The notes under the pieces: model-generated | Seen by the model: only the letters and a program-made list of their open reading frames with translations | Databases searched by the model: none | Told to the model about the DNA's origin: nothing | Translations under genes and position numbers: made by a program | Shown here: in pieces, positions 2,931-50,175 of the stretch | Layout: each line of letters starts with the position of its first letter | Position numbering within the stretch: the first letter of the stretch is position 1 | Source: Minisyncoccota bacterium | Lineage (GTDB): Bacteria > Patescibacteriota > Minisyncoccia > Phycocordibacterales > UBA9973 | DNA length: 50,343 nucleotides | Direction: 5' to 3' | Assembly (NCBI GenBank): GCA_041665885.1 | Contig: JBAYHY010000004.1 | Location: 1 to 50,343, forward strand

Positions 2931-3389
2931 TTAAATTAGAGTTTTTAACTCAGACAGTGTCTCTATGATGAAAGTCGGCGTGCCCGTTTCCATATTGGGT
3001 AATTCATTAGCAAAGGGTCCGCTTTTGAGCCAAGCTGTTGGATGATCGTTTATATTGCCGTATTTAATACTTTTTACTATCCTGTCATCAACAAATAATA
3101 TTTCTCCCTTTTTTAGATTTAATTTTTTAATTAATTTTTCCAAGATGCTGTCTTTTTCTTTTTCACCGGAAACTTCAAACATATCAATATATTTGCCCAA
3201 CGGTAAAGCTTTTATCTGGTTTTCTCTTTCTTCTATCGTAGTATTAGCCCTTACCAAGGAGGCGACACATATTTTATAACCTTTTTGTTTGCAATACGAC
3301 AAAACATCTTCTGCGTCAGAAATTTCTTTTTTGGTGTCAACATCGTATAAAGTCCTTCCCCAATCGAAAATTATTGCCTTGATGTTCAT
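2931..3389 (-). CDS. HAD-superfamily hydrolase
   Basis: IIFDWGRTLYD motif I, LFVDDR motif IV. Confidence 0.8.
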   Translation of the reverse strand: MNIKAIIFDWGRTLYDVDTKKEISDAEDVLSYCKQKGYKICVASLVRANTTIEERENQIKALPLGKYIDMFEVSGEKEKDSILEKLIKKLNLKKGEILFVDDRIVKSIKYGNINDHPTAWLKSGPFANELPNMETGTPTFIIETLSELKTLI

Positions 3390-3448: not shown

Positions 3449-3892
3449 TTAATCCTTAATGTATCTAACTTCATCCGAAATAACTTTCCCTCTTTTAAAA
3501 TCTTCTCCAAAACCCCTGGGTAAAACTATGATATTGTCACTTGGATTAACCCAAACTATTTCCGTAATCTCATGAGCATGAGAACGGGTCAATTTTTCTA
3601 GATTATGATACTCGTTTCCGTTTGTTACCTCAAAAAAGAATTCCACATAATGTCTACCATCTTCGTGTGCAAATGTGTTAACGTAAAGTAACTTTCCTAT
3701 TTCTGGTTTTACACCAAGCTCTTCAATTATTTCTCTTGATAAACATTCCTTCGGATCCTCTCCCCACTCCAAGTGGCCACCCGGCAGGGCCACAAGATTT
3801 GCTGGATATCCAGGATGTTTTACTGCCAACAATTTTCCATTATCCAAAATGATCCCCCGACATTTTATAAGAACCTTTTTTTCTTTTTCCAT
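3449..3892 (-). CDS. NUDIX hydrolase
   Basis: Nudix box GGHLEWGEDPKECLSREIIEELG; probable start ATG 3892. Confidence 0.9.
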   Translation of the reverse strand: MEKEKKVLIKCRGIILDNGKLLAVKHPGYPANLVALPGGHLEWGEDPKECLSREIIEELGVKPEIGKLLYVNTFAHEDGRHYVEFFFEVTNGNEYHNLEKLTRSHAHEITEIVWVNPSDNIIVLPRGFGEDFKRGKVISDEVRYIKD

Positions 3893-3899
3893 AAATTTA

Positions 3900-4139
3900 T
3901 TATACAAAAAGTTTTAATTTTTTCTCCCTTCTCCAACGCTTAATTTCTGCTTCTCGTCTTCTTGCTTCCTTTAGTGTTGCAAACCCTTCAGAGTACTTCA
4001 GAATTACTGGTCTACGTATTTTTGTATAGTGTGCGCCGTATTTTGAATTATTGTGTTGCTCTAATCTCCTTTGTAAATTATTGGTACAGCCAACATACAA
4101 GCTTTTGTCTGCGCATTCTAGGATATAAGTGGAATACAT
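3900..4139 (-). CDS. Small GIY-YIG nuclease (UPF0213/YazA-like)
   Basis: TYIL...LYVGCTNNLQRRLEQHN...REAEIK; 79 aa. Confidence 0.9.
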   Translation of the reverse strand: MYSTYILECADKSLYVGCTNNLQRRLEQHNNSKYGAHYTKIRRPVILKYSEGFATLKEARRREAEIKRWRREKKLKLFV

Positions 4140-4149
4140 AGAATAATTA

Positions 4150-4246
4150 TACCTCGCCGCACTTCGCTTCGCTCAGTACTCACTCGGTACCTTCCTTCAG
4201 TTATTTTGTCACGGCCGTAGGCCCTGACGACCGAAGGGAGGAAGGG
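4150..4246. repeat. REP-like hairpin-rich spacer between tRNA-Gln and the GIY-YIG gene
   Basis: gccct...agggc stem (4221-4247), GAGCGAAGCGAAG motif on minus strand, GTAC...GTAC short stem. Confidence 0.55.
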
Positions 4247-4317
4247 CTGGGAGACTAGGATTCGAACCTAGATAAATGGATCCAGAATCCATTGTCCTAC
4301 CATTAGACGATCTCCCA
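4247..4317 (-). tRNA. trnQ: tRNA-Gln(CTG), CCA not encoded
   Basis: TGGGAGA/TCTCCCA acceptor, ATGGA-TTCTGGA-TCCAT anticodon arm, GGTTCGAATCC T arm. Confidence 0.95.
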
Positions 4318-4331
4318 AAATTACTTATCAA

Positions 4332-4373
4332 ACCATTAGATCTGCCTGCGCAGGCAGGCGATCTCCCAAAATT
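4332..4373 (-). repeat. Duplicated 5' end of tRNA-Gln (24 nt) interrupted by an 18-nt palindromic insert
   Basis: accattaga + cgatctcccaaaatt match 4299-4322 exactly; insert tctgcctgcgcaggcagg at 4341-4358. Confidence 0.85.
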
Positions 4374-4424
4374 TCTATTTACTTTGATAGATTACTCCAA
4401 AAAACTATGTTTTACAAGAAAATT

Positions 4425-6119
4425 CTATTTTTTCTTATTAATACAAGCTTTAATAAAAGACGTGAAAAGTGGATGTGGGCGAAGCGGGTGCGCTAAAAAT
4501 TCGGGATGAAATTGAGAACCTAAAAAGAATGGGTGTTTGTTTTTCGGCAATTCCGCTACTTCCATCAAATGCCCATCCGGTGAACGTCCAGAAAAGACTA
4601 AACCCTTGGCCTCAAGATCCCCGATAAATGACGGATTCACTTCATAGCGATGACGGTGCCTTTCAATAATTTCCCCGCCTGCTCCCGAACCACCGTGAGG
4701 GCGGGCAGGTTTTTTCCCATAATAAGCATCATAGGCAACCGTACCTTTTCGCAACATGGCCTTGTAGGCTCCCAGGCGCATCGATCCGCCATATAGATTT
4801 TTCTTCAAGAGTTCCTTTTGAGATTCCATCACATCAATGACTAAATACTTTGAATTCGGGTTTACTTCCCTCGTATTTGCGCCCTTCAGGCCCAAAACAT
4901 TTCTGGCATATTCTATCACCATCATCTGCATCCCGTAGCAAAGGCCGAGATATGGGATTTTGTTTTCTCGGGCAAATTTTACCGAGCTCAAAATTCCTTC
5001 CACTCCCCGCGCCCCGAAGCCTCCCGGCACCACGATGCCATCGTATTTTTTTAATTCTTTTAACTTTGCTGGATTTTTTTCAAAATCGGTGGAATTCAAC
5101 CAGGTTAAAATCGGTTTTCTGTTTTGCGCATAGCTGGAATATTTTATCGCCTCGATGACGGATAAATATGAATCGGACAAAATAAAGTCCCCGGTTTCAA
5201 AATATTTTCCTATCATGGCTATCTTCACCACCTCTTTACCGTTGTGCGCATGGTGCGCAAATTTTTTCCAGGCATTCCAGGATGCAATGTCGGGTTTCTT
5301 GCAAACAATTCCCAAAATACTGCAAAGCTTTTCGGACAATTTTTCTTTTTCAAAATTAATCGGTATATCATAAATACTACTGACGTCCGGCGCAGAAACC
5401 ACTCTATCCGCGGGCATATTACAGAAAAGCGAAAGTTTCTCTTTTCTTTTTTCGTCAAGATCATGTTCCCCCCTGGCTATCAAAATATCAGGCTGAATGC
5501 CGGAAGCATTCAAGGTGCGAACTGCATATTGGGTCGGTTTGGTTTTCATTTCTCCGATTTTTCCCGGTGTCGGCAGATAGGAAACCATCACAAAAGCGAC
5601 GTTTTTCGGATTTTCAATCTTCATCATACGGGCTGCCTCCAAAAACAAAATATTTTGATATTCTCCGATGGTTCCACCTATTTCGATAATGACGATATCC
5701 GCCTTGGCCACTTCCCCTGCTTTTTTGATACGTCCGATAACTTCGAGCGGGATATGCGGGACGACTTCCACACACTTACCTTTGTATTCCAAATTCCTTT
5801 CTTTTTCGATAACCGTCTTATATACTCGCCCGGTCGTCATGTAATTTATCCGCGTCAGATTGAGGTCCAAAAATCTTTCATAATTCCCCATGTCTTGATC
5901 CGTTTCATCTCCATCGGAAAGCACAAAAACTTCTCCGTGTTCGGTCGGATTCATCGTCCCGGCATCCACATTGATATATGGATCAACTTTAATCGCGGTT
6001 ACATTCAGTCCGCGATTTTTTAAAATAAGCCCCAAAGATGAAACGGTGACCCCCTTTCCCACCCCAGAAATAACACCCCCCACCACGAAAATATATTTTA
6101 TTTCTTTTTTTTCCGGCAT
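4425..6119 (-). CDS. pyrG: CTP synthase, with a 12-aa in-frame palindromic insert
   Basis: GGVISGVGKG, KVDPYINVDAGTMNP, GGTIG, GGFG, GLCYGMQ, ERHRHRYEVN, QFHPEF. Confidence 0.98.
   Translation of the reverse strand: MPEKKEIKYIFVVGGVISGVGKGVTVSSLGLILKNRGLNVTAIKVDPYINVDAGTMNPTEHGEVFVLSDGDETDQDMGNYERFLDLNLTRINYMTTGRVYKTVIEKERNLEYKGKCVEVVPHIPLEVIGRIKKAGEVAKADIVIIEIGGTIGEYQNILFLEAARMMKIENPKNVAFVMVSYLPTPGKIGEMKTKPTQYAVRTLNASGIQPDILIARGEHDLDEKRKEKLSLFCNMPADRVVSAPDVSSIYDIPINFEKEKLSEKLCSILGIVCKKPDIASWNAWKKFAHHAHNGKEVVKIAMIGKYFETGDFILSDSYLSVIEAIKYSSYAQNRKPILTWLNSTDFEKNPAKLKELKKYDGIVVPGGFGARGVEGILSSVKFARENKIPYLGLCYGMQMMVIEYARNVLGLKGANTREVNPNSKYLVIDVMESQKELLKKNLYGGSMRLGAYKAMLRKGTVAYDAYYGKKPARPHGGSGAGGEIIERHRHRYEVNPSFIGDLEAKGLVFSGRSPDGHLMEVAELPKNKHPFFLGSQFHPEFLAHPLRPHPLFTSFIKACINKKK
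4674..4709. mobile_element. 36-bp palindromic element inserted in frame in pyrG (encodes PARPHGGSGAGG)
   Basis: Arms cccgcctgc...gcgggcagg identical to those at 41210-41248; interrupts the usual YG..IxERHRHRY segment. Confidence 0.75.
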
Positions 6120-13754: not shown

Positions 13755-13780
13755 AAAACAACCCCGAACGGGGCTGTTTT
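13755..13780 (-). terminator. Intrinsic terminator after the 35-aa peptide gene
   Basis: AAAACAGCCCC-GTTC-GGGGTTGTTTT. Confidence 0.75.
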
Positions 13781-13786
13781 TAAAAA

Positions 13787-13894
13787 CTACTGAGCTGGAG
13801 TTTCCGGGGTTTCTACTTCCGGGGTTTCTGGAGTCGTAGGAATTTCTACTTCCGGGGTTTCCGGGGTGTTTGGAGTGGTTGTTTCGTCTGACAT
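13787..13894 (-). CDS. 35-aa Thr/Pro/Glu repeat peptide MSDETTTPNTPETPEVEIPTTPETPEVETPETPAQ (not in ORF track)
   Basis: ATG 13894 to TAG 13787; TG-A-TACAAT promoter near 13960; terminator directly after the stop. Confidence 0.6.
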   Translation of the reverse strand: MSDETTTPNTPETPEVEIPTTPETPEVETPETPAQ

Positions 13895-14052
13895 ATTATT
13901 GTTAGATTAATGATAAATACACTAACAAGCCAAGCTGACTAAGCGCTGGCTACTGATTGTATTGTATCACAAATATAAAAATCTTGCGCAACCGAGCGGA
14001 CGAAGTTGGAAGTAGAATAAGGCAGCATAACGACTGTATTTATATACCAGGG

Positions 14053-14562
14053 TTAAGAAATAAAAGTATTGATTTCAATTAATAATACTTCTGGGGTTTT
14101 TACAGTATCTACTACTAACTCTCCTTTTTCTGGTATAACTTCCATATCCTTATAATTTTCCTTCATTTTTTCAAAGTTTGTTATTAGTTGGTTAGGTTTT
14201 GGATTTTTAGTTCGTTCATTAAAACGTTCTGCCCATATTCTTTCATCGCTACAAATAACAAGTATTGAGTTTAATTCAACTTCTTTTTCTCCACACCATT
14301 TTTTGATAATAGAAAAATGTTCAATTGAGTGAAAAGGAAAATCAATAATAAACGAACAATTAGTTTTTATATTACTTTCTAGGATTGCATAAAGCGAACC
14401 ATAAGAGATTTTATTTCTTACCTGATGACTTTCTATAAATTCTGAAACTACATCATAAATATCATCTTTTCTTAAAACGGGAATGCCAGTTTTTTTAGAA
14501 AGAATATTTGAAATTGTGGTTTTGCCTACTCCAGGACGTCCTCTAAACAAAATAATTTTCAT
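14053..14562 (-). CDS. P-loop kinase-like protein (AAA_33-like), AT-rich
   Basis: GRPGVGKTT Walker A, FIIDFP. Confidence 0.8.
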   Translation of the reverse strand: MKIILFRGRPGVGKTTISNILSKKTGIPVLRKDDIYDVVSEFIESHQVRNKISYGSLYAILESNIKTNCSFIIDFPFHSIEHFSIIKKWCGEKEVELNSILVICSDERIWAERFNERTKNPKPNQLITNFEKMKENYKDMEVIPEKGELVVDTVKTPEVLLIEINTFIS

Positions 14563-14604
14563 AAAGTTATAATATCACAGTTCAAACCTAGCCAATTGGC
14601 AAAT

Positions 14605-14859
14605 CTAGATAAGGTAATTTGCTAATTGTTTTTTAAGATATCTCCTTCCCGAACCGCTTTTCAGAAATCTTTCCCTGCCTTCAGCATCTTTTTTGTTTAT
14701 ATATCCTTCGCAGTAAATTACTTTCCAAGTTTTATCACCCGTGGTCGTTTGACAACCGTGACCAGACAAATGCTCTTTCAATCTTTTCTTTAAATCAGAA
14801 GTATAGCCAATATACCAACTTTTATCTTTTTGATTTTCCAAAAGATATGTCCAAAACAT
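14605..14859 (-). CDS. Small GIY-YIG nuclease
   Basis: TYLL...WYIGYTSDLKKRLKEH...DAEGRERFLKSGSGR. Confidence 0.9.
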   Translation of the reverse strand: MFWTYLLENQKDKSWYIGYTSDLKKRLKEHLSGHGCQTTTGDKTWKVIYCEGYINKKDAEGRERFLKSGSGRRYLKKQLANYLI

Positions 14860-14877
14860 ACAGACATTATAGTCCCT

Positions 14878-15010
14878 GTCGCGTAAAAGCTAAAGCTCAC
14901 GCGACGCGCGTAAACAAAAAAAACACCATATGGTGTTTTTTTTGTCACACAGCTTCATCCCTTTTGGGGCGAAGCCGCGTGGCAAATGTTAAGCATTTGC
15001 TTTACGCGGC
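14878..15010. repeat. Four stacked hairpins between tRNA-Asp and the GIY-YIG gene
   Basis: gtcgcgt/acgcgac (14878-14905), perfect 30-bp palindrome (14915-14944), gcttc...gaagc (14952-14975), gccgcgt/acgcggc (14974-15010). Confidence 0.8.
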
Positions 15011-15083
15011 GCGACCGAGCGGATTTGAACCGCCAACCTCCCGCGTGACAGGCGGGTGCTCTAACCAGTTGAGCTACGATCGC
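15010..15083 (-). tRNA. trnD: tRNA-Asp(GTC)
   Basis: GCGATCG/CGGTCGC acceptor, CCCGC-CTGTCAC-GCGGG anticodon arm. Confidence 0.96.
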
Positions 15084-15130: not shown

Positions 15131-15203
15131 TGTCGGCGGCAGGGAGTGCGCCTGCGACCCCGGGCTTATGAGTCCCGTGCTCTACTAACTGAGCTACGCC
15201 GAC
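15131..15203 (-). tRNA. trnM: tRNA with CAT anticodon (probably elongator Met) with non-canonical D and T loops
   Basis: Fully paired GTCGGCG/CGCCGAC acceptor, CTCATAA loop; T loop CGCACTC, D loop AGTTAGTA. Confidence 0.85.
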
Positions 15204-15245: not shown

Positions 15246-15923
15246 TTAGGTGTTTGATATGTGGTCTATCGCCCCAAGAATCTTGTTTCTAACACACGTG
15301 CCCTTTCTTACTTTCACCCTTAAAATACCTTTGTATTTCCCCATGTCTTTTAAAGAAGCCTTTTTGAGATTTGTTTTTATATAAGTAGTTTTTGAAAATT
15401 GTTCTTTTTTGATATTTAGGAAGTTTATCCAAAACAATTTTATGTTACTTTCTTCCCTCCTGAAAAATTCATTCAAGGTGAGCCGAAAAATCAAAACATC
15501 CTTTTCTATCCTCCACAACTTTAACCATTTAAAGTAAAAACGCATCATGTATGGGTTGCTATTTGTGAAACCGAACTCGCCGTTTTCGTATTTATATCCT
15601 TCTCCCCAATACAAACCAAGGCCAATCATCAAAATATCTCTACTTGACAATTCTCCCACGGCTGTTGCTCCCTCTCGTTTTTGCAAAATATTTCTTGAGA
15701 TCCTCTCTCTTCGCTTCAACTCCGAGTACTTTAAAAGTCCTCTGACAGATTTAATTTTTCCTTTCGTTTTTATTTTTTTTATTGCGGCCCCCGAGAGAAG
15801 GACATCTTTGCACCAAAAACTAAGCGTTGATTTGGCAATGTTTAGTTTTTTGGATATGTCACCCAGGCTTTCGCCGTTTTTCCTCATTTTTATCGTCGTC
15901 TCTTTTATGTGTGGATAGTACAT
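15246..15923 (-). CDS. N-terminal HTH plus LAGLIDADG-like domain protein, free-standing
   Basis: GESLGDISKKLNIAKSTLSFW HTH; GLGLYWGEG.K...FTNSNP motif. Confidence 0.7.
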   Translation of the reverse strand: MYYPHIKETTIKMRKNGESLGDISKKLNIAKSTLSFWCKDVLLSGAAIKKIKTKGKIKSVRGLLKYSELKRRERISRNILQKREGATAVGELSSRDILMIGLGLYWGEGYKYENGEFGFTNSNPYMMRFYFKWLKLWRIEKDVLIFRLTLNEFFRREESNIKLFWINFLNIKKEQFSKTTYIKTNLKKASLKDMGKYKGILRVKVRKGTCVRNKILGAIDHISNT

Positions 15924-15989: not shown

Positions 15990-15998
15990 ACCTTTTAT

Positions 15999-16307
15999 AG
16001 CGGGGTAGAGAAGAGGCATCTCGTAAGGCTCAGCGGTAAATATGGGCCCCCTCTTGGGAAACCTGGAGGTGTGCACTCGTCAAATTCGGAGAAATCCTCC
16101 CTGCCGATTGGCAGAAAGACAATTCCGAGCTAAATTCTCTGAATGATATCAGAGATAAATGTGTAGAGACTAGATGACGGGCTCCTTAATCTATAATTAA
16201 TTTTTTAGAAAGGAGATGGTATAGTCCAGACCACAAACAGAATGGTAGTGAAAACTATAGTGGTAAAGCATAACCTTAAGACCCACGTTCGATTCGTGGC
16301 CCCGCAA
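15999..16307 (+). tRNA. trnfM: Initiator tRNA-fMet(CAT) split by an intron (exons 15999-16030 and 16269-16307)
   Basis: Spliced 71-nt cloverleaf: A1:A72 mismatch, A11:U24, TAAGG-CTCATAA-CCTTA, CCACG-TTCGATT-CGTGG. Confidence 0.92.
16031..16268 (+). ncRNA. Group I self-splicing intron (IC3-like), 238 nt, no ORF
   Basis: 5' exon ends in U33, intron ends in G; IGS UAUG-GGCC (16041-16048) pairs with both exons; P3 CTCGTCA/TGACGGG, P7 GACTA/TAGTC, P4 TTCGGA/TCCGAG. Confidence 0.92.
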
Positions 16308-16312
16308 CAATT

Positions 16313-41209: not shown

Positions 41210-41248
41210 CCCGCCTGCAAAAGCTATGCTTTAGCCATTGCGGGCAGG
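41210..41248. mobile_element. 39-bp palindromic element forming the secF C-terminus and stop
   Basis: cccgcctgc-aaaagctatgctttagccatt-gcgggcagg; arms identical to the pyrG insert. Confidence 0.75.
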
Positions 41249-42145
41249 TTTCTTTTGGTGTTCCTGCACGAGAACCAGGAGTGGCGAAGCAAGGAAAATT
41301 GAAGAATATGTTCCAAAAAACATTCCGGCAGTAAGCATAAGGGCAAAATATCTTGTAGAAACTGGCCCAAAGAAGAAAAGCGCCAAAAGTACGAGAATGA
41401 CAGTCATGGAAGTAGAGATGGAGCGTACGAAGGACTGCTCCAGACTCTTCCCCACTATTTCACCGAAATCTATTTTGGACACATTCGCTTGATTCCTTAA
41501 ATTCTCACGAATTCTGTCGAAAATAACGATGGTATCTGAAACAGAAAGCCCCAGAATAGTAAGTACTGCCACCACGAAGAGAGTATCTACCTCCGCTCCA
41601 AAATAGTGAGACAAAATGACAAACAGACCGACAGGGATAGCGACGTCGTGCAGAAGGGTGACAATTGCGATAATCCCATACTTCCAAGAAGAAACCGGTT
41701 TAGAAACTTTGCGAAAAGCAAAAGCAATAAATAAAATAATCGCCAAAGAAACTAAAATGATTGCTAGAATGGCCTTTCTGGCAAGTTCCGCTCCCACCGT
41801 TGGGCCGACAGAAGTAAAGCTCATTTCAGTAAGCGCGTCTTTATTGTCCCCGGAAAGAGTTGTCAAAAGCAGGGCATGCTCTCTGTCACTTAGGTCACGA
41901 GTCTTCACAATATAACCCAAGTCCCCCGTAGGCTGAAGAAGAATAGATCCCAAATTAAGGACTTCGAGAGATTTTTCTATTGTTGCCTGGGCTGGACGCT
42001 CAGTGGTGTAAACAACCTCGGTAAGCGCCCCTCCCTTAAAATCAATACCGAAATTCAATCCGAAAACAAATAAGGAAATAAAAGAGAGAACCACCAAGGC
42101 TATCGATATACTAATAAATATTTTTTTGTGTTTGATTATAAACAT
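41231..42145 (-). CDS. secF: Protein translocase subunit SecF
   Basis: GIDFKGG, VGPTVGAEL, TLLHDV, SVSDTIVIFDRIRE, GTYSSIFLASP. Confidence 0.96.
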   Translation of the reverse strand: MFIIKHKKIFISISIALVVLSFISLFVFGLNFGIDFKGGALTEVVYTTERPAQATIEKSLEVLNLGSILLQPTGDLGYIVKTRDLSDREHALLLTTLSGDNKDALTEMSFTSVGPTVGAELARKAILAIILVSLAIILFIAFAFRKVSKPVSSWKYGIIAIVTLLHDVAIPVGLFVILSHYFGAEVDTLFVVAVLTILGLSVSDTIVIFDRIRENLRNQANVSKIDFGEIVGKSLEQSFVRSISTSMTVILVLLALFFFGPVSTRYFALMLTAGMFFGTYSSIFLASPLLVLVQEHQKKPARNG

Positions 42146-50000: not shown

Positions 50001-50175
50001 GAAAACTTGATTACAAAATTCTTCACAAAGAATTTTTAAAAAACGTGTACCTCCCTGCTAAAGCAGGCCCAGTCCTTTTGACTCCGAGGGCGCAGTTTTA
50101 AGAAAATTCTTTGCGAAGAATAATATTTTAATTGTCCCTGTCGCTCGCGAGCGACAGGGTGTGGTTTACAAATTT

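Follow-up and report, generated by a model that had tools for sequence, protein, structure and literature searches.

A putative GIY-YIG nuclease cassette with a structured RNA module at the 3' end of the tRNA-Asp gene of a Minisyncoccota bacterium

Known systems and the locus

SegB of phages T4 and T6 is a free-standing GIY-YIG homing endonuclease that is encoded within a tRNA cluster, occurs sporadically among relatives, and promotes the inheritance and rearrangement of the tRNA region (PMC2330249; PMC13096335). It is the nearest proven analogue of the nuclease considered here, whose gene likewise lies beside a tRNA gene, behind tRNA-Asp and a set of stacked hairpins, in a 50,343-nt window (the whole stretch of DNA analyzed; contig JBAYHY010000004.1 of assembly GCA_041665885.1, contig C4 of the source genome). 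This genome, of a Minisyncoccota bacterium, comprises 643 kb, is 97% complete, and has a guanine-plus-cytosine (GC) content of ~40%. We refer to the hairpins and the nuclease gene, with their relatives at other sites, as cassettes.

SegB and the cassette protein differ in several respects. SegB is larger and belongs to a homing-endonuclease lineage, which a 2006 phylogenomic analysis sets apart from the Slx1-like proteins (PMC1564403), whereas the cassette protein is an 84-aa catalytic domain encoded in a bacterial chromosome. SegB is associated with neither target duplication nor a structured RNA module, whereas the cassettes come with 9-20-nt repeats of tRNA 3' ends. The best sequence matches of the cassette protein are Slx1-like/UPF0213 proteins (BH0048, PDB 1zg2; EF2693, PDB 1ywl), which have the same minimal single-domain architecture and, like the cassette protein, are without the Asn that typifies the UvrC/homing-endonuclease lineage. 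The 2006 analysis interprets this family as vertically inherited repair enzymes, one of which is fused to a tRNA methyltransferase; it mentions tRNA three times, the one available mention being of this fusion and not of gene neighborhood, and its available passages contain nothing on tRNA-end insertion, target repeats, or a conserved trailer module (PMC1564403).

Tyrosine-integrase islands at tRNA genes share with the cassette the insertion at the 3' end, the regeneration of an intact tRNA, and a direct repeat with its limits in the T-loop and at the 3' terminus; in contrast to them, the cassette has no integrase, can be as small as ~450 bp as a whole unit, and shows, within one lineage, different repeats that match the respective targets. 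In the candidate phyla radiation (CPR), the same radiation, rRNA genes contain non-intron insertions that encode GIY-YIG proteins, along with many short inserts of <200 bp (PMC11270868). These are, as here, small GIY-YIG genes in structural RNA loci without group I/II features, whereas the cassette targets the tRNA 3' end and carries a covarying RNA module; the main text of that report makes no mention of tRNA, hairpins, or palindromes (PMC11270868). Lastly, elements of the repetitive extragenic palindromic (REP) or Rickettsia palindromic element type resemble the short GC-rich palindromes, here called family B, that are scattered in genes and RNA-gene fragments. Unlike these, the module of the cassette consists of several helices and was seen beside the nuclease gene only, save for lone copies of its hairpin 4 (HP4) in two 23S rRNA genes. 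In the full-text literature searched, we found no account of GIY-YIG cassettes that sit at tRNA ends and include a structured module; the coverage of this literature is incomplete, so that the absence is not proof.

A repeat-bounded insertion behind tRNA-Asp

The tRNA-Asp(GTC) gene (15008-15083, minus strand, as are all features of the cassette) is recognized by ARAGORN and by Rfam (69.5 bits), and no second tRNA-Asp gene is found in the assembly. It is followed by the hairpins, an open reading frame (ORF) for the 84-aa GIY-YIG protein (14605-14859), and an ORF for a 169-aa P-loop kinase-like protein (14053-14562), an order that was first read from the bare sequence and is confirmed in all its parts. 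Given that the last 15 nt of tRNA-Asp recur downstream of the kinase gene (TCCGCTCGGTTGCGC, 13986-14000, minus strand, 14/15 identical to tRNA positions 61-75), the ~1 kb in between (14001-15007) is taken as an insertion, with this displaced 3' end as its right boundary; the next base is A, as in the empty alleles described below. The GC content is 0.325 over 14001-15000, compared with about 0.40 genome-wide. On balance, we consider it probable that 14001-15007 is a tRNA-Asp 3'-end insertion and belongs to a family of small tRNA-end cassettes that are maintained in the manner proposed further below.

The comparison with relatives that the sequence-only reading called for reveals that occupied and unoccupied tRNA-Asp sites differ among close relatives. 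The site is filled in four genomes (the source genome G000, G001, G359, and G182) and empty in seven genomes of the same genus (G002, G022, G009, G019, G017, G013, and G003), which is the patchy presence at cognate sites known from homing endonucleases. The empty alleles end in ...GCG-CA, with unrelated DNA thereafter; the tRNA-Asp gene at the empty site of G002 is 99% identical to that of the window, and the tRNA-Asp genes of filled G182 and empty G013 differ only in the last base shown. The 3' end of the window gene reads G73-C-C-G, compared with G73-C-A in the empty alleles of relatives, and the left junction of the cassettes is constant, N73-CC-(A/G)CGTAAA.

The core cassette is ~450 bp and consists of a ~130-nt structured module followed by a promoter-proximal GIY-YIG gene. 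Inserts with the hairpin module and the GIY-YIG gene only are bounded by perfect repeats of 16 nt in G359 (TCCGGTCGCTCGCGCC; ~450-bp insert) and of 19 nt in G182 (CAAGTCCGGTCGATCGCGC). The cassette of G001, also at tRNA-Asp, has a 9-nt repeat, that of G017, located after tRNA-Gln(UUG), an 11-nt repeat of the tRNA-Gln end, and that of G032, at a non-tRNA site, a ~20-nt repeat ending GTCGC(G/A)C; further copies follow initiator tRNAs in three other genera (G077, G099, and G252). One cassette lineage is therefore seen at tRNA-Asp, tRNA-Gln, the initiator tRNA, and one non-tRNA site, with several copies flanked by the repeat of their own target. Protein identity is 73-84% among the Asp-site copies, with G032 among them, and 61-74% between these and the copies at tRNA-Gln and initiator tRNA; the identities sort the copies by target, and we conclude that target switches are rare. 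Terminal inverted repeats were considered as a general feature and set aside, as they are seen only in G359 (CCACGTG...TTTTACGTGG, abutting the right repeat) and not in the window, G001, G017, G032, or G182.

A direct repeat of the tRNA 3' end that flanks the insert while an intact tRNA is kept is also what integrase islands show. It is conceivable, though doubtful, that the locus is the remnant of an integrase-made islet, in which a larger element, integrated by a tyrosine integrase with its crossover in the T-loop, has decayed to its left end; nuclease, hairpins, and kinase would then be leftover cargo, and the nuclease would have no role in the insertion. The 15-19-nt T-loop-to-3' repeat and the regenerated tRNA form the classic attL/attR footprint, which is shared, without any GIY-YIG gene, by a kinase gene in G006 and by hairpin-only inserts at tRNA-Lys and tRNA-Leu (both described below). 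This is, however, at odds with the complete ~450-bp units with perfect repeats in G359 and G182 and with the strong purifying selection on the nuclease, and the match of the repeats to different targets (Asp, Gln, and non-tRNA) favors target-derived duplication over an att site borne by the element. Moreover, no recombinase ORF is present in the insert or at or near the cassette loci read, serine recombinases not having been searched for; the single PF00589 tyrosine recombinase gene of the source genome is on another contig, C2, away from the cassette.

Just past the right boundary of the insertion, a 44-codon ORF (13760-13893, minus strand) with its own terminator encodes a Pro/Glu/Thr repeat peptide (…TPETPEVE…).

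The structured trailer module

The 148-nt spacer between tRNA-Asp and the GIY-YIG gene (14860-15007) folds at -75.9 kcal/mol, compared with -41.6 +/- 3.4 kcal/mol in 200 shuffles (z = -10.1), none of which is as good. The four hairpins noticed there earlier are present, in the form of a closing stem that surrounds hairpins 1-3 (HP1-HP3), followed by HP4. The closing stem (GCGTAAA...TTTACGC), which begins at tRNA position 76, pairs about 15007-15001 with about 14913-14907. Within it lie HP1 (15000-14982), HP2 (14981-14946), and HP3 (14945-14914), the last of which is a perfect 16-bp A8/T8 hairpin and the predicted terminator of the tRNA transcript. Together these elements make up a structured trailer module (14907-15007), which is recognized by the z score of its fold, an architecture shared by nine copies, and covariation. 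In a joint fold of tRNA and trailer, the cloverleaf is preserved, and the closing helix, which takes in G73 and C74, stacks on the acceptor stem. An overlap of the hairpins with the tRNA discriminator, suggested before, is thus real, but in this precursor fold it is the closing stem that causes it and not hairpin 1.

All nine cassette copies folded have one architecture. In a manual alignment of the helices of these nine copies, which are related to each other, pairing is kept in 71/71 cells of HP1, despite 8 distinct arm sequences, and in 62/65 cells of the closing stem; the A76-to-G change in the window is offset by a T-to-C change on the opposite side of the closing stem. In the four copies tested, the sense strand is more stable than the antisense strand by 5-17 kcal/mol and contains 4-5 G-U pairs, compared with 0-2 for the antisense strand. 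The module therefore has what is asked of a structured RNA, namely helices kept by compensatory changes and a strand-specific signal. HP3 differs in sequence in each of the nine copies, yet it is always a hairpin with a U-run, and by its sequence it has the features of an intrinsic terminator, a stable hairpin with a U-run immediately after it on the strand that is transcribed; a simple terminator scan passed over it on account of its A/T-rich stem. Given the compensatory changes, the G-U pairs confined to the sense strand, and the constant U-run of HP3, the module is most likely an RNA, and it is read as the 3' trailer and terminator of the tRNA transcript, which would protect the tRNA.

The module is found in all nine closest DNA relatives of the cassette, across four different sites, and the hairpins are for this reason regarded as physically part of the cassette. 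The sole more distant copy read, in G253 (locus L197; 66% DNA identity), lacks the module and comes immediately after a 5S rRNA gene with its terminator, a position that is consistent with the published GIY-YIG inserts at CPR rRNA loci.

Hairpin 4 and the nuclease promoter

HP4 (GTCGCGTGAGCTTTAGCTTTTACGCGAC, 14878-14905, minus strand) is a 28-nt hairpin marked by covariation, with 61/61 pairs in the outer stem and an inner stem that covaries from AGC/GCT to GAAC/GTTC. All 28 nt are identical across three genomes, although the synonymous sites of the neighboring gene are saturated, and the hairpin occupies the expected position of the -35 box. A TATAAT box (14866-14871, minus strand), read from the sequence, precedes the ATG of the GIY-YIG gene by 6 nt, and this spacing is kept in G032, G001, G359, and G182; the GIY-YIG mRNA is predicted to be leaderless. 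A consensus promoter scan did not flag the box, which is without a good -35 element, and scans for promoters and terminators are uninformative here. Because HP4 is identical despite saturated synonymous distance (dS) and covers the -35 region, it is probably a binding site, which makes it a candidate operator or protein-binding hairpin over the nuclease promoter. Lone HP4 copies are also found inside the 23S rRNA genes of G182 and G404.

When a loose HP4 pattern (GTCGCGTG-N8-14-TTACGCGAC) was searched in public genomes, 4/119 loci among the matches listed were near GIY-YIG genes; most of these matches are due to chance in GC-rich genomes, which makes the scan of no use as a census, and the GIY-YIG-adjacent loci added inner-stem variants. 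In two GC-rich genomes (loci L161 and L163), the GIY-YIG gene lies between HP4-like hairpins (GTCGCGTAAAAGACTTCGTCTCACGCGAC and relatives) and seemingly interrupts a long, perhaps integrase-like reading frame that resumes past the cassette. Hairpins of the HP4 type may go together with GIY-YIG cassettes far beyond the CPR.

The GIY-YIG nuclease

The 84-aa protein matches PF01541 over residues 1-72 (1.9e-16; 60.5 bits against a cut-off of 22.6), and its best structure match is the UPF0213 protein of PDB 1zg2 (3.4e-9). In NCBIfam, the sole match is sub-threshold and covers the N-terminal third of an intron-endonuclease model (25.3 bits against a 56-bit cut-off). All seven cassette proteins compared have the catalytic residues Y5, Y16, R26, H30, and E63. 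By these matches, the protein is best described as a stand-alone nuclease of the Slx1-like/UPF0213 type, with a single domain and no extensions. The ratio of nonsynonymous to synonymous substitution (dN/dS) of the cassette nuclease is 0.06-0.22 with saturated dS, indicating purifying selection.

All three small GIY-YIG genes of the source genome abut tRNAs, as do 10 of the 29 GIY-YIG loci fetched from relatives (P about 1e-9 for adjacency), and gene and tRNA are co-oriented in 13/13 tRNA-adjacent cases; the proposal that tRNA, hairpins, and GIY-YIG gene form one recurring unit is borne out by these counts. The 61 relatives have 0-7 copies each, with none in 9 of them, and several copies contain stops or truncations; to judge from its genes, the family behaves like an accessory or selfish element.

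That the gene is instead a domesticated host nuclease, a repair or RNA-metabolism enzyme that lies beside tRNAs for its expression, with hairpins that are ordinary terminators or REP-like and with nothing mobile now, seems distinctly unlikely. Low dN/dS values over saturated synonymous distances and the constant position on the strand of the tRNA would suit such a gene, as would the proposal that prokaryotic Slx1-like proteins are vertically inherited repair enzymes (PMC1564403). A resident enzyme would not, however, be expected to vary in copy number with absences and broken copies, to show filled and empty alleles among close relatives, to be flanked by perfect target repeats in two relatives, or to occur as one lineage at four kinds of site.

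The kinase and other candidate cargo

The kinase-like ORF (14053-14562, minus strand) matches AAA_33 (3.3e-9; 37.6 bits against a 27-bit cut-off) and contains the Walker A motif GRPGVGKT; searches for an equivalog family and for a solved relative returned neither. Homologs are present in 5/121 relatives. The sequence-only reading took this AT-rich kinase gene as cargo, which is supported: it is a rare passenger gene inside the repeat-bounded insertion. A kinase gene is found inside a repeat-bounded insert in G032 as well as in the window, and the kinases of the window, G032, and G359 share only 20-28% identity with one another. Serial insertion predicts a second tRNA-Asp remnant between the GIY-YIG and kinase genes; the candidate, TTGGCTAGGTTTGAACTG, matches at ~11/16, which is weak and not significant, and was rejected.

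The other GIY-YIG unit in the window, copy 1, has the gene content described before, that is, tRNA-Gln (4244-4318), GIY-YIG (3900-4139), NUDIX (3449-3907), and HAD (2931-3389), in confirmed order. The idea that both units trail nucleotide-modifying enzymes is supported for the kinase as cargo and not for the NUDIX gene, which is sporadic (10/61 genomes) and whose 10 homologous loci in relatives never adjoin a GIY-YIG gene. The pattern is half coincidence, and NUDIX/HAD as recurrent cargo was rejected on the basis of these NUDIX loci.

Palindromes and other inserts at tRNA genes

The sequence-only reading linked the nuclease-adjacent hairpins to palindromes within genes, by way of a loop that resembles an element in secF. 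The loop string AAAAGCTAAAGCT occurs once (14885-14897), and so does the string of the secF element (41219-41235), which spans the stop codon of ORF 41231-42145, a putative secF; as the two share ~8 nt and each is single-copy, the likeness is not significant alone. The secF element (41210-41248) and an insert in pyrG (4674-4709) do belong to one palindrome family, family B, with arms CCTGCCYGC...GCRGGCRGG. Across 61 genomes, family B counts do not correlate with GIY-YIG counts (rho 0.23, p 0.07; within genus, rho 0.03), and genomes free of GIY-YIG still hold 8-13 family B palindromes. This is the independent distribution across genomes that the sequence-only reading had named as speaking against a link, and the supposed co-occurrence of palindrome family and nuclease is abandoned. 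The cassette hairpins are linked to the nuclease, and the in-gene palindrome family is not, at the genome level.

Locally, a connection between palindromes and nuclease may still exist, given the lone HP4 copies in 23S rRNA genes and a secF-type palindrome that splits a tRNA-Val 5' fragment directly upstream of the GIY-YIG gene in G013. In G015, a family B palindrome splits a tRNA-Gln fragment directly upstream of GIY-YIG; in the window, the exact palindrome CCTGCCTGCGCAGGCAG lies in a tRNA-Gln 5' fragment (4340-4375, minus strand), and the same site is used in G015. Two exact 24-nt palindromes, CCCCGTCACTCGCGAGTGACGGGG and CCCCGTCGTTCGCGAACGACGGGG, split one half of a pseudo tRNA-Trp that precedes GIY-YIG copy 3 (C13:16493-16590), and a fourth member of this 24-nt family, CCCTGTCGCTCGCGAGCGACAGGG, lies between the 23S and 5S rRNA genes of the window (50136-50159).

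Such arrangements would be expected if the hairpins acted as DNA, namely as cruciform or single-strand substrates that a structure-specific nuclease cuts to move the cassette and the short palindromes, an explanation that we regard as highly improbable. The identity of HP4 at 28/28 nt across genomes with saturated dS, its lone copies in 23S rRNA genes, and the palindromes of families A and B that split tRNA fragments upstream of GIY-YIG (C13, G015, and G013) point in this direction. Against it, the G-U pairs, the stability bias, and the U-run of HP3 indicate one strand, although a single-stranded DNA intermediate of that strand would also be compatible, and the family B palindromes are uncorrelated with GIY-YIG and persist in GIY-YIG-free genomes.

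Inserts of other kinds are found at further tRNA genes of the source genome. At C12:9238-9610, a hairpin-only insert of 60-95 nt lies behind tRNA-Lys(CUU) and another behind tRNA-Leu(UAG), and after each insert the last 19 nt of the respective tRNA recur exactly; one hairpin, AAAATCACCTGGnnATGTAATnnCC, is common to both inserts, which appear to be non-coding relatives of the tRNA-end insertions. Upstream of many tRNA genes (Val-GAC, Val-UAC, Glu-UUC, and Gly-CCC; C1:45939-46157, C3:5956-6179, C1:43102-43269, and C1:52437-52567), the 5' end of the gene recurs in one or two partial copies that, together with promoter-like DNA, form tandem units of ~70 nt, with no GIY-YIG gene present; tandem 5'-end copies likewise precede tRNA-Asp in G002 and G022.

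How the cassette may be maintained

We propose that the module, as the 3' trailer of the precursor, would supply the C75(A76) context and clamp the trailer against the acceptor stem, and that the tRNA transcript would be terminated at HP3. In this way the sole tRNA-Asp would stay functional, with the nuclease gene insulated behind its own leaderless promoter, over which HP4 could act as a binding or control site. The nuclease would then retain the cassette by cutting unoccupied tRNA-gene ends or folded DNA in a homing-like manner, which is the least certain step, and the kinase passenger may have entered together with the cassette or through serial insertion at one hot spot. The mechanism of cassette movement is inferred.

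Several observations weigh against this proposal. With its span from T-loop to 3' terminus, the repeat is precisely the footprint of tyrosine-integrase islands, and no flanking repeat is seen at the initiator-tRNA copies (G077, G099, and G252). Seg-like homing endonucleases carry a separate DNA-binding part, whereas the catalytic domain fills the 84-aa protein, which is without a DNA-binding domain and in this differs from the proven GIY-YIG homing enzymes. Strong purifying selection at saturated dS would also suit a long-resident gene that is useful to the host. With respect to the kinases, the kinase-like gene of G359 lies outside the repeats, following the right repeat, and the best homolog of the window kinase (49%, G006) is located 41 nt past tRNA-Ser, at a site where the tRNA-end repeat has decayed and a GIY-YIG gene is absent. 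Kinase genes are hence recurrent passengers of tRNA-end insertions and are not tied to the cassette nuclease; and given the G006 locus together with the hairpin-only inserts at tRNA-Lys and tRNA-Leu, tRNA-end insertion needs no resident cassette nuclease in cis.

A further possibility, which we consider unlikely, is that the cassettes are mobile DNA that does without a transposase, the nuclease recognizing shape instead of sequence, namely the folded, tRNA-like DNA of a tRNA gene under heavy transcription, and nicking it in the T-loop (~56/57) and at the 3' terminus (74/75). Two fixed nicks would explain both the repeats of up to 19 nt and the occurrence of cassettes at many different tRNAs, and the module would then have a double role, as RNA that protects the tRNA and as DNA that marks the end of the element. 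The tRNA-end cassette maintained by a homing-like nuclease remains the reading that we prefer.

Neighboring tRNA genes

A tRNA(CAU) gene 47 nt upstream of tRNA-Asp (15131-15203, minus strand) is recognized by Rfam (54 bits) and missed by ARAGORN, and its T-loop reads CGCACTC rather than TTCRANY. Another tRNA(CAU) gene, on the plus strand (15991-16310), is interrupted by a group I intron (16021-16248; Rfam 70.6 bits); back to back with it lies an ORF of 225 aa (15246-15923, minus strand) with a helix-turn-helix domain and a LAGLIDADG-like motif (GLGLYWGEGYK). The tRNA-Asp gene of G001 has an insert of ~200 nt in the anticodon loop that is intron-like by appearance only.

Implications

If the proposal is correct, these ~450-bp units would be among the smallest self-contained selfish cassettes, residing, in ultra-small bacteria, at the 3' ends of tRNA genes that are essential and single-copy, and paying for the site with an RNA module that keeps the tRNA working. 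The CCA-proximal clamp, the terminator, and the leaderless promoter would together constitute a compact natural insulator. The presence of many tRNA-end duplications and of small accessory genes beside tRNAs, such as the rare kinase, would also be explained. For the UPF0213/Slx1-like nucleases of bacteria, which have long been uncharacterized, the cassette would offer a defined substrate that can be put to the test.

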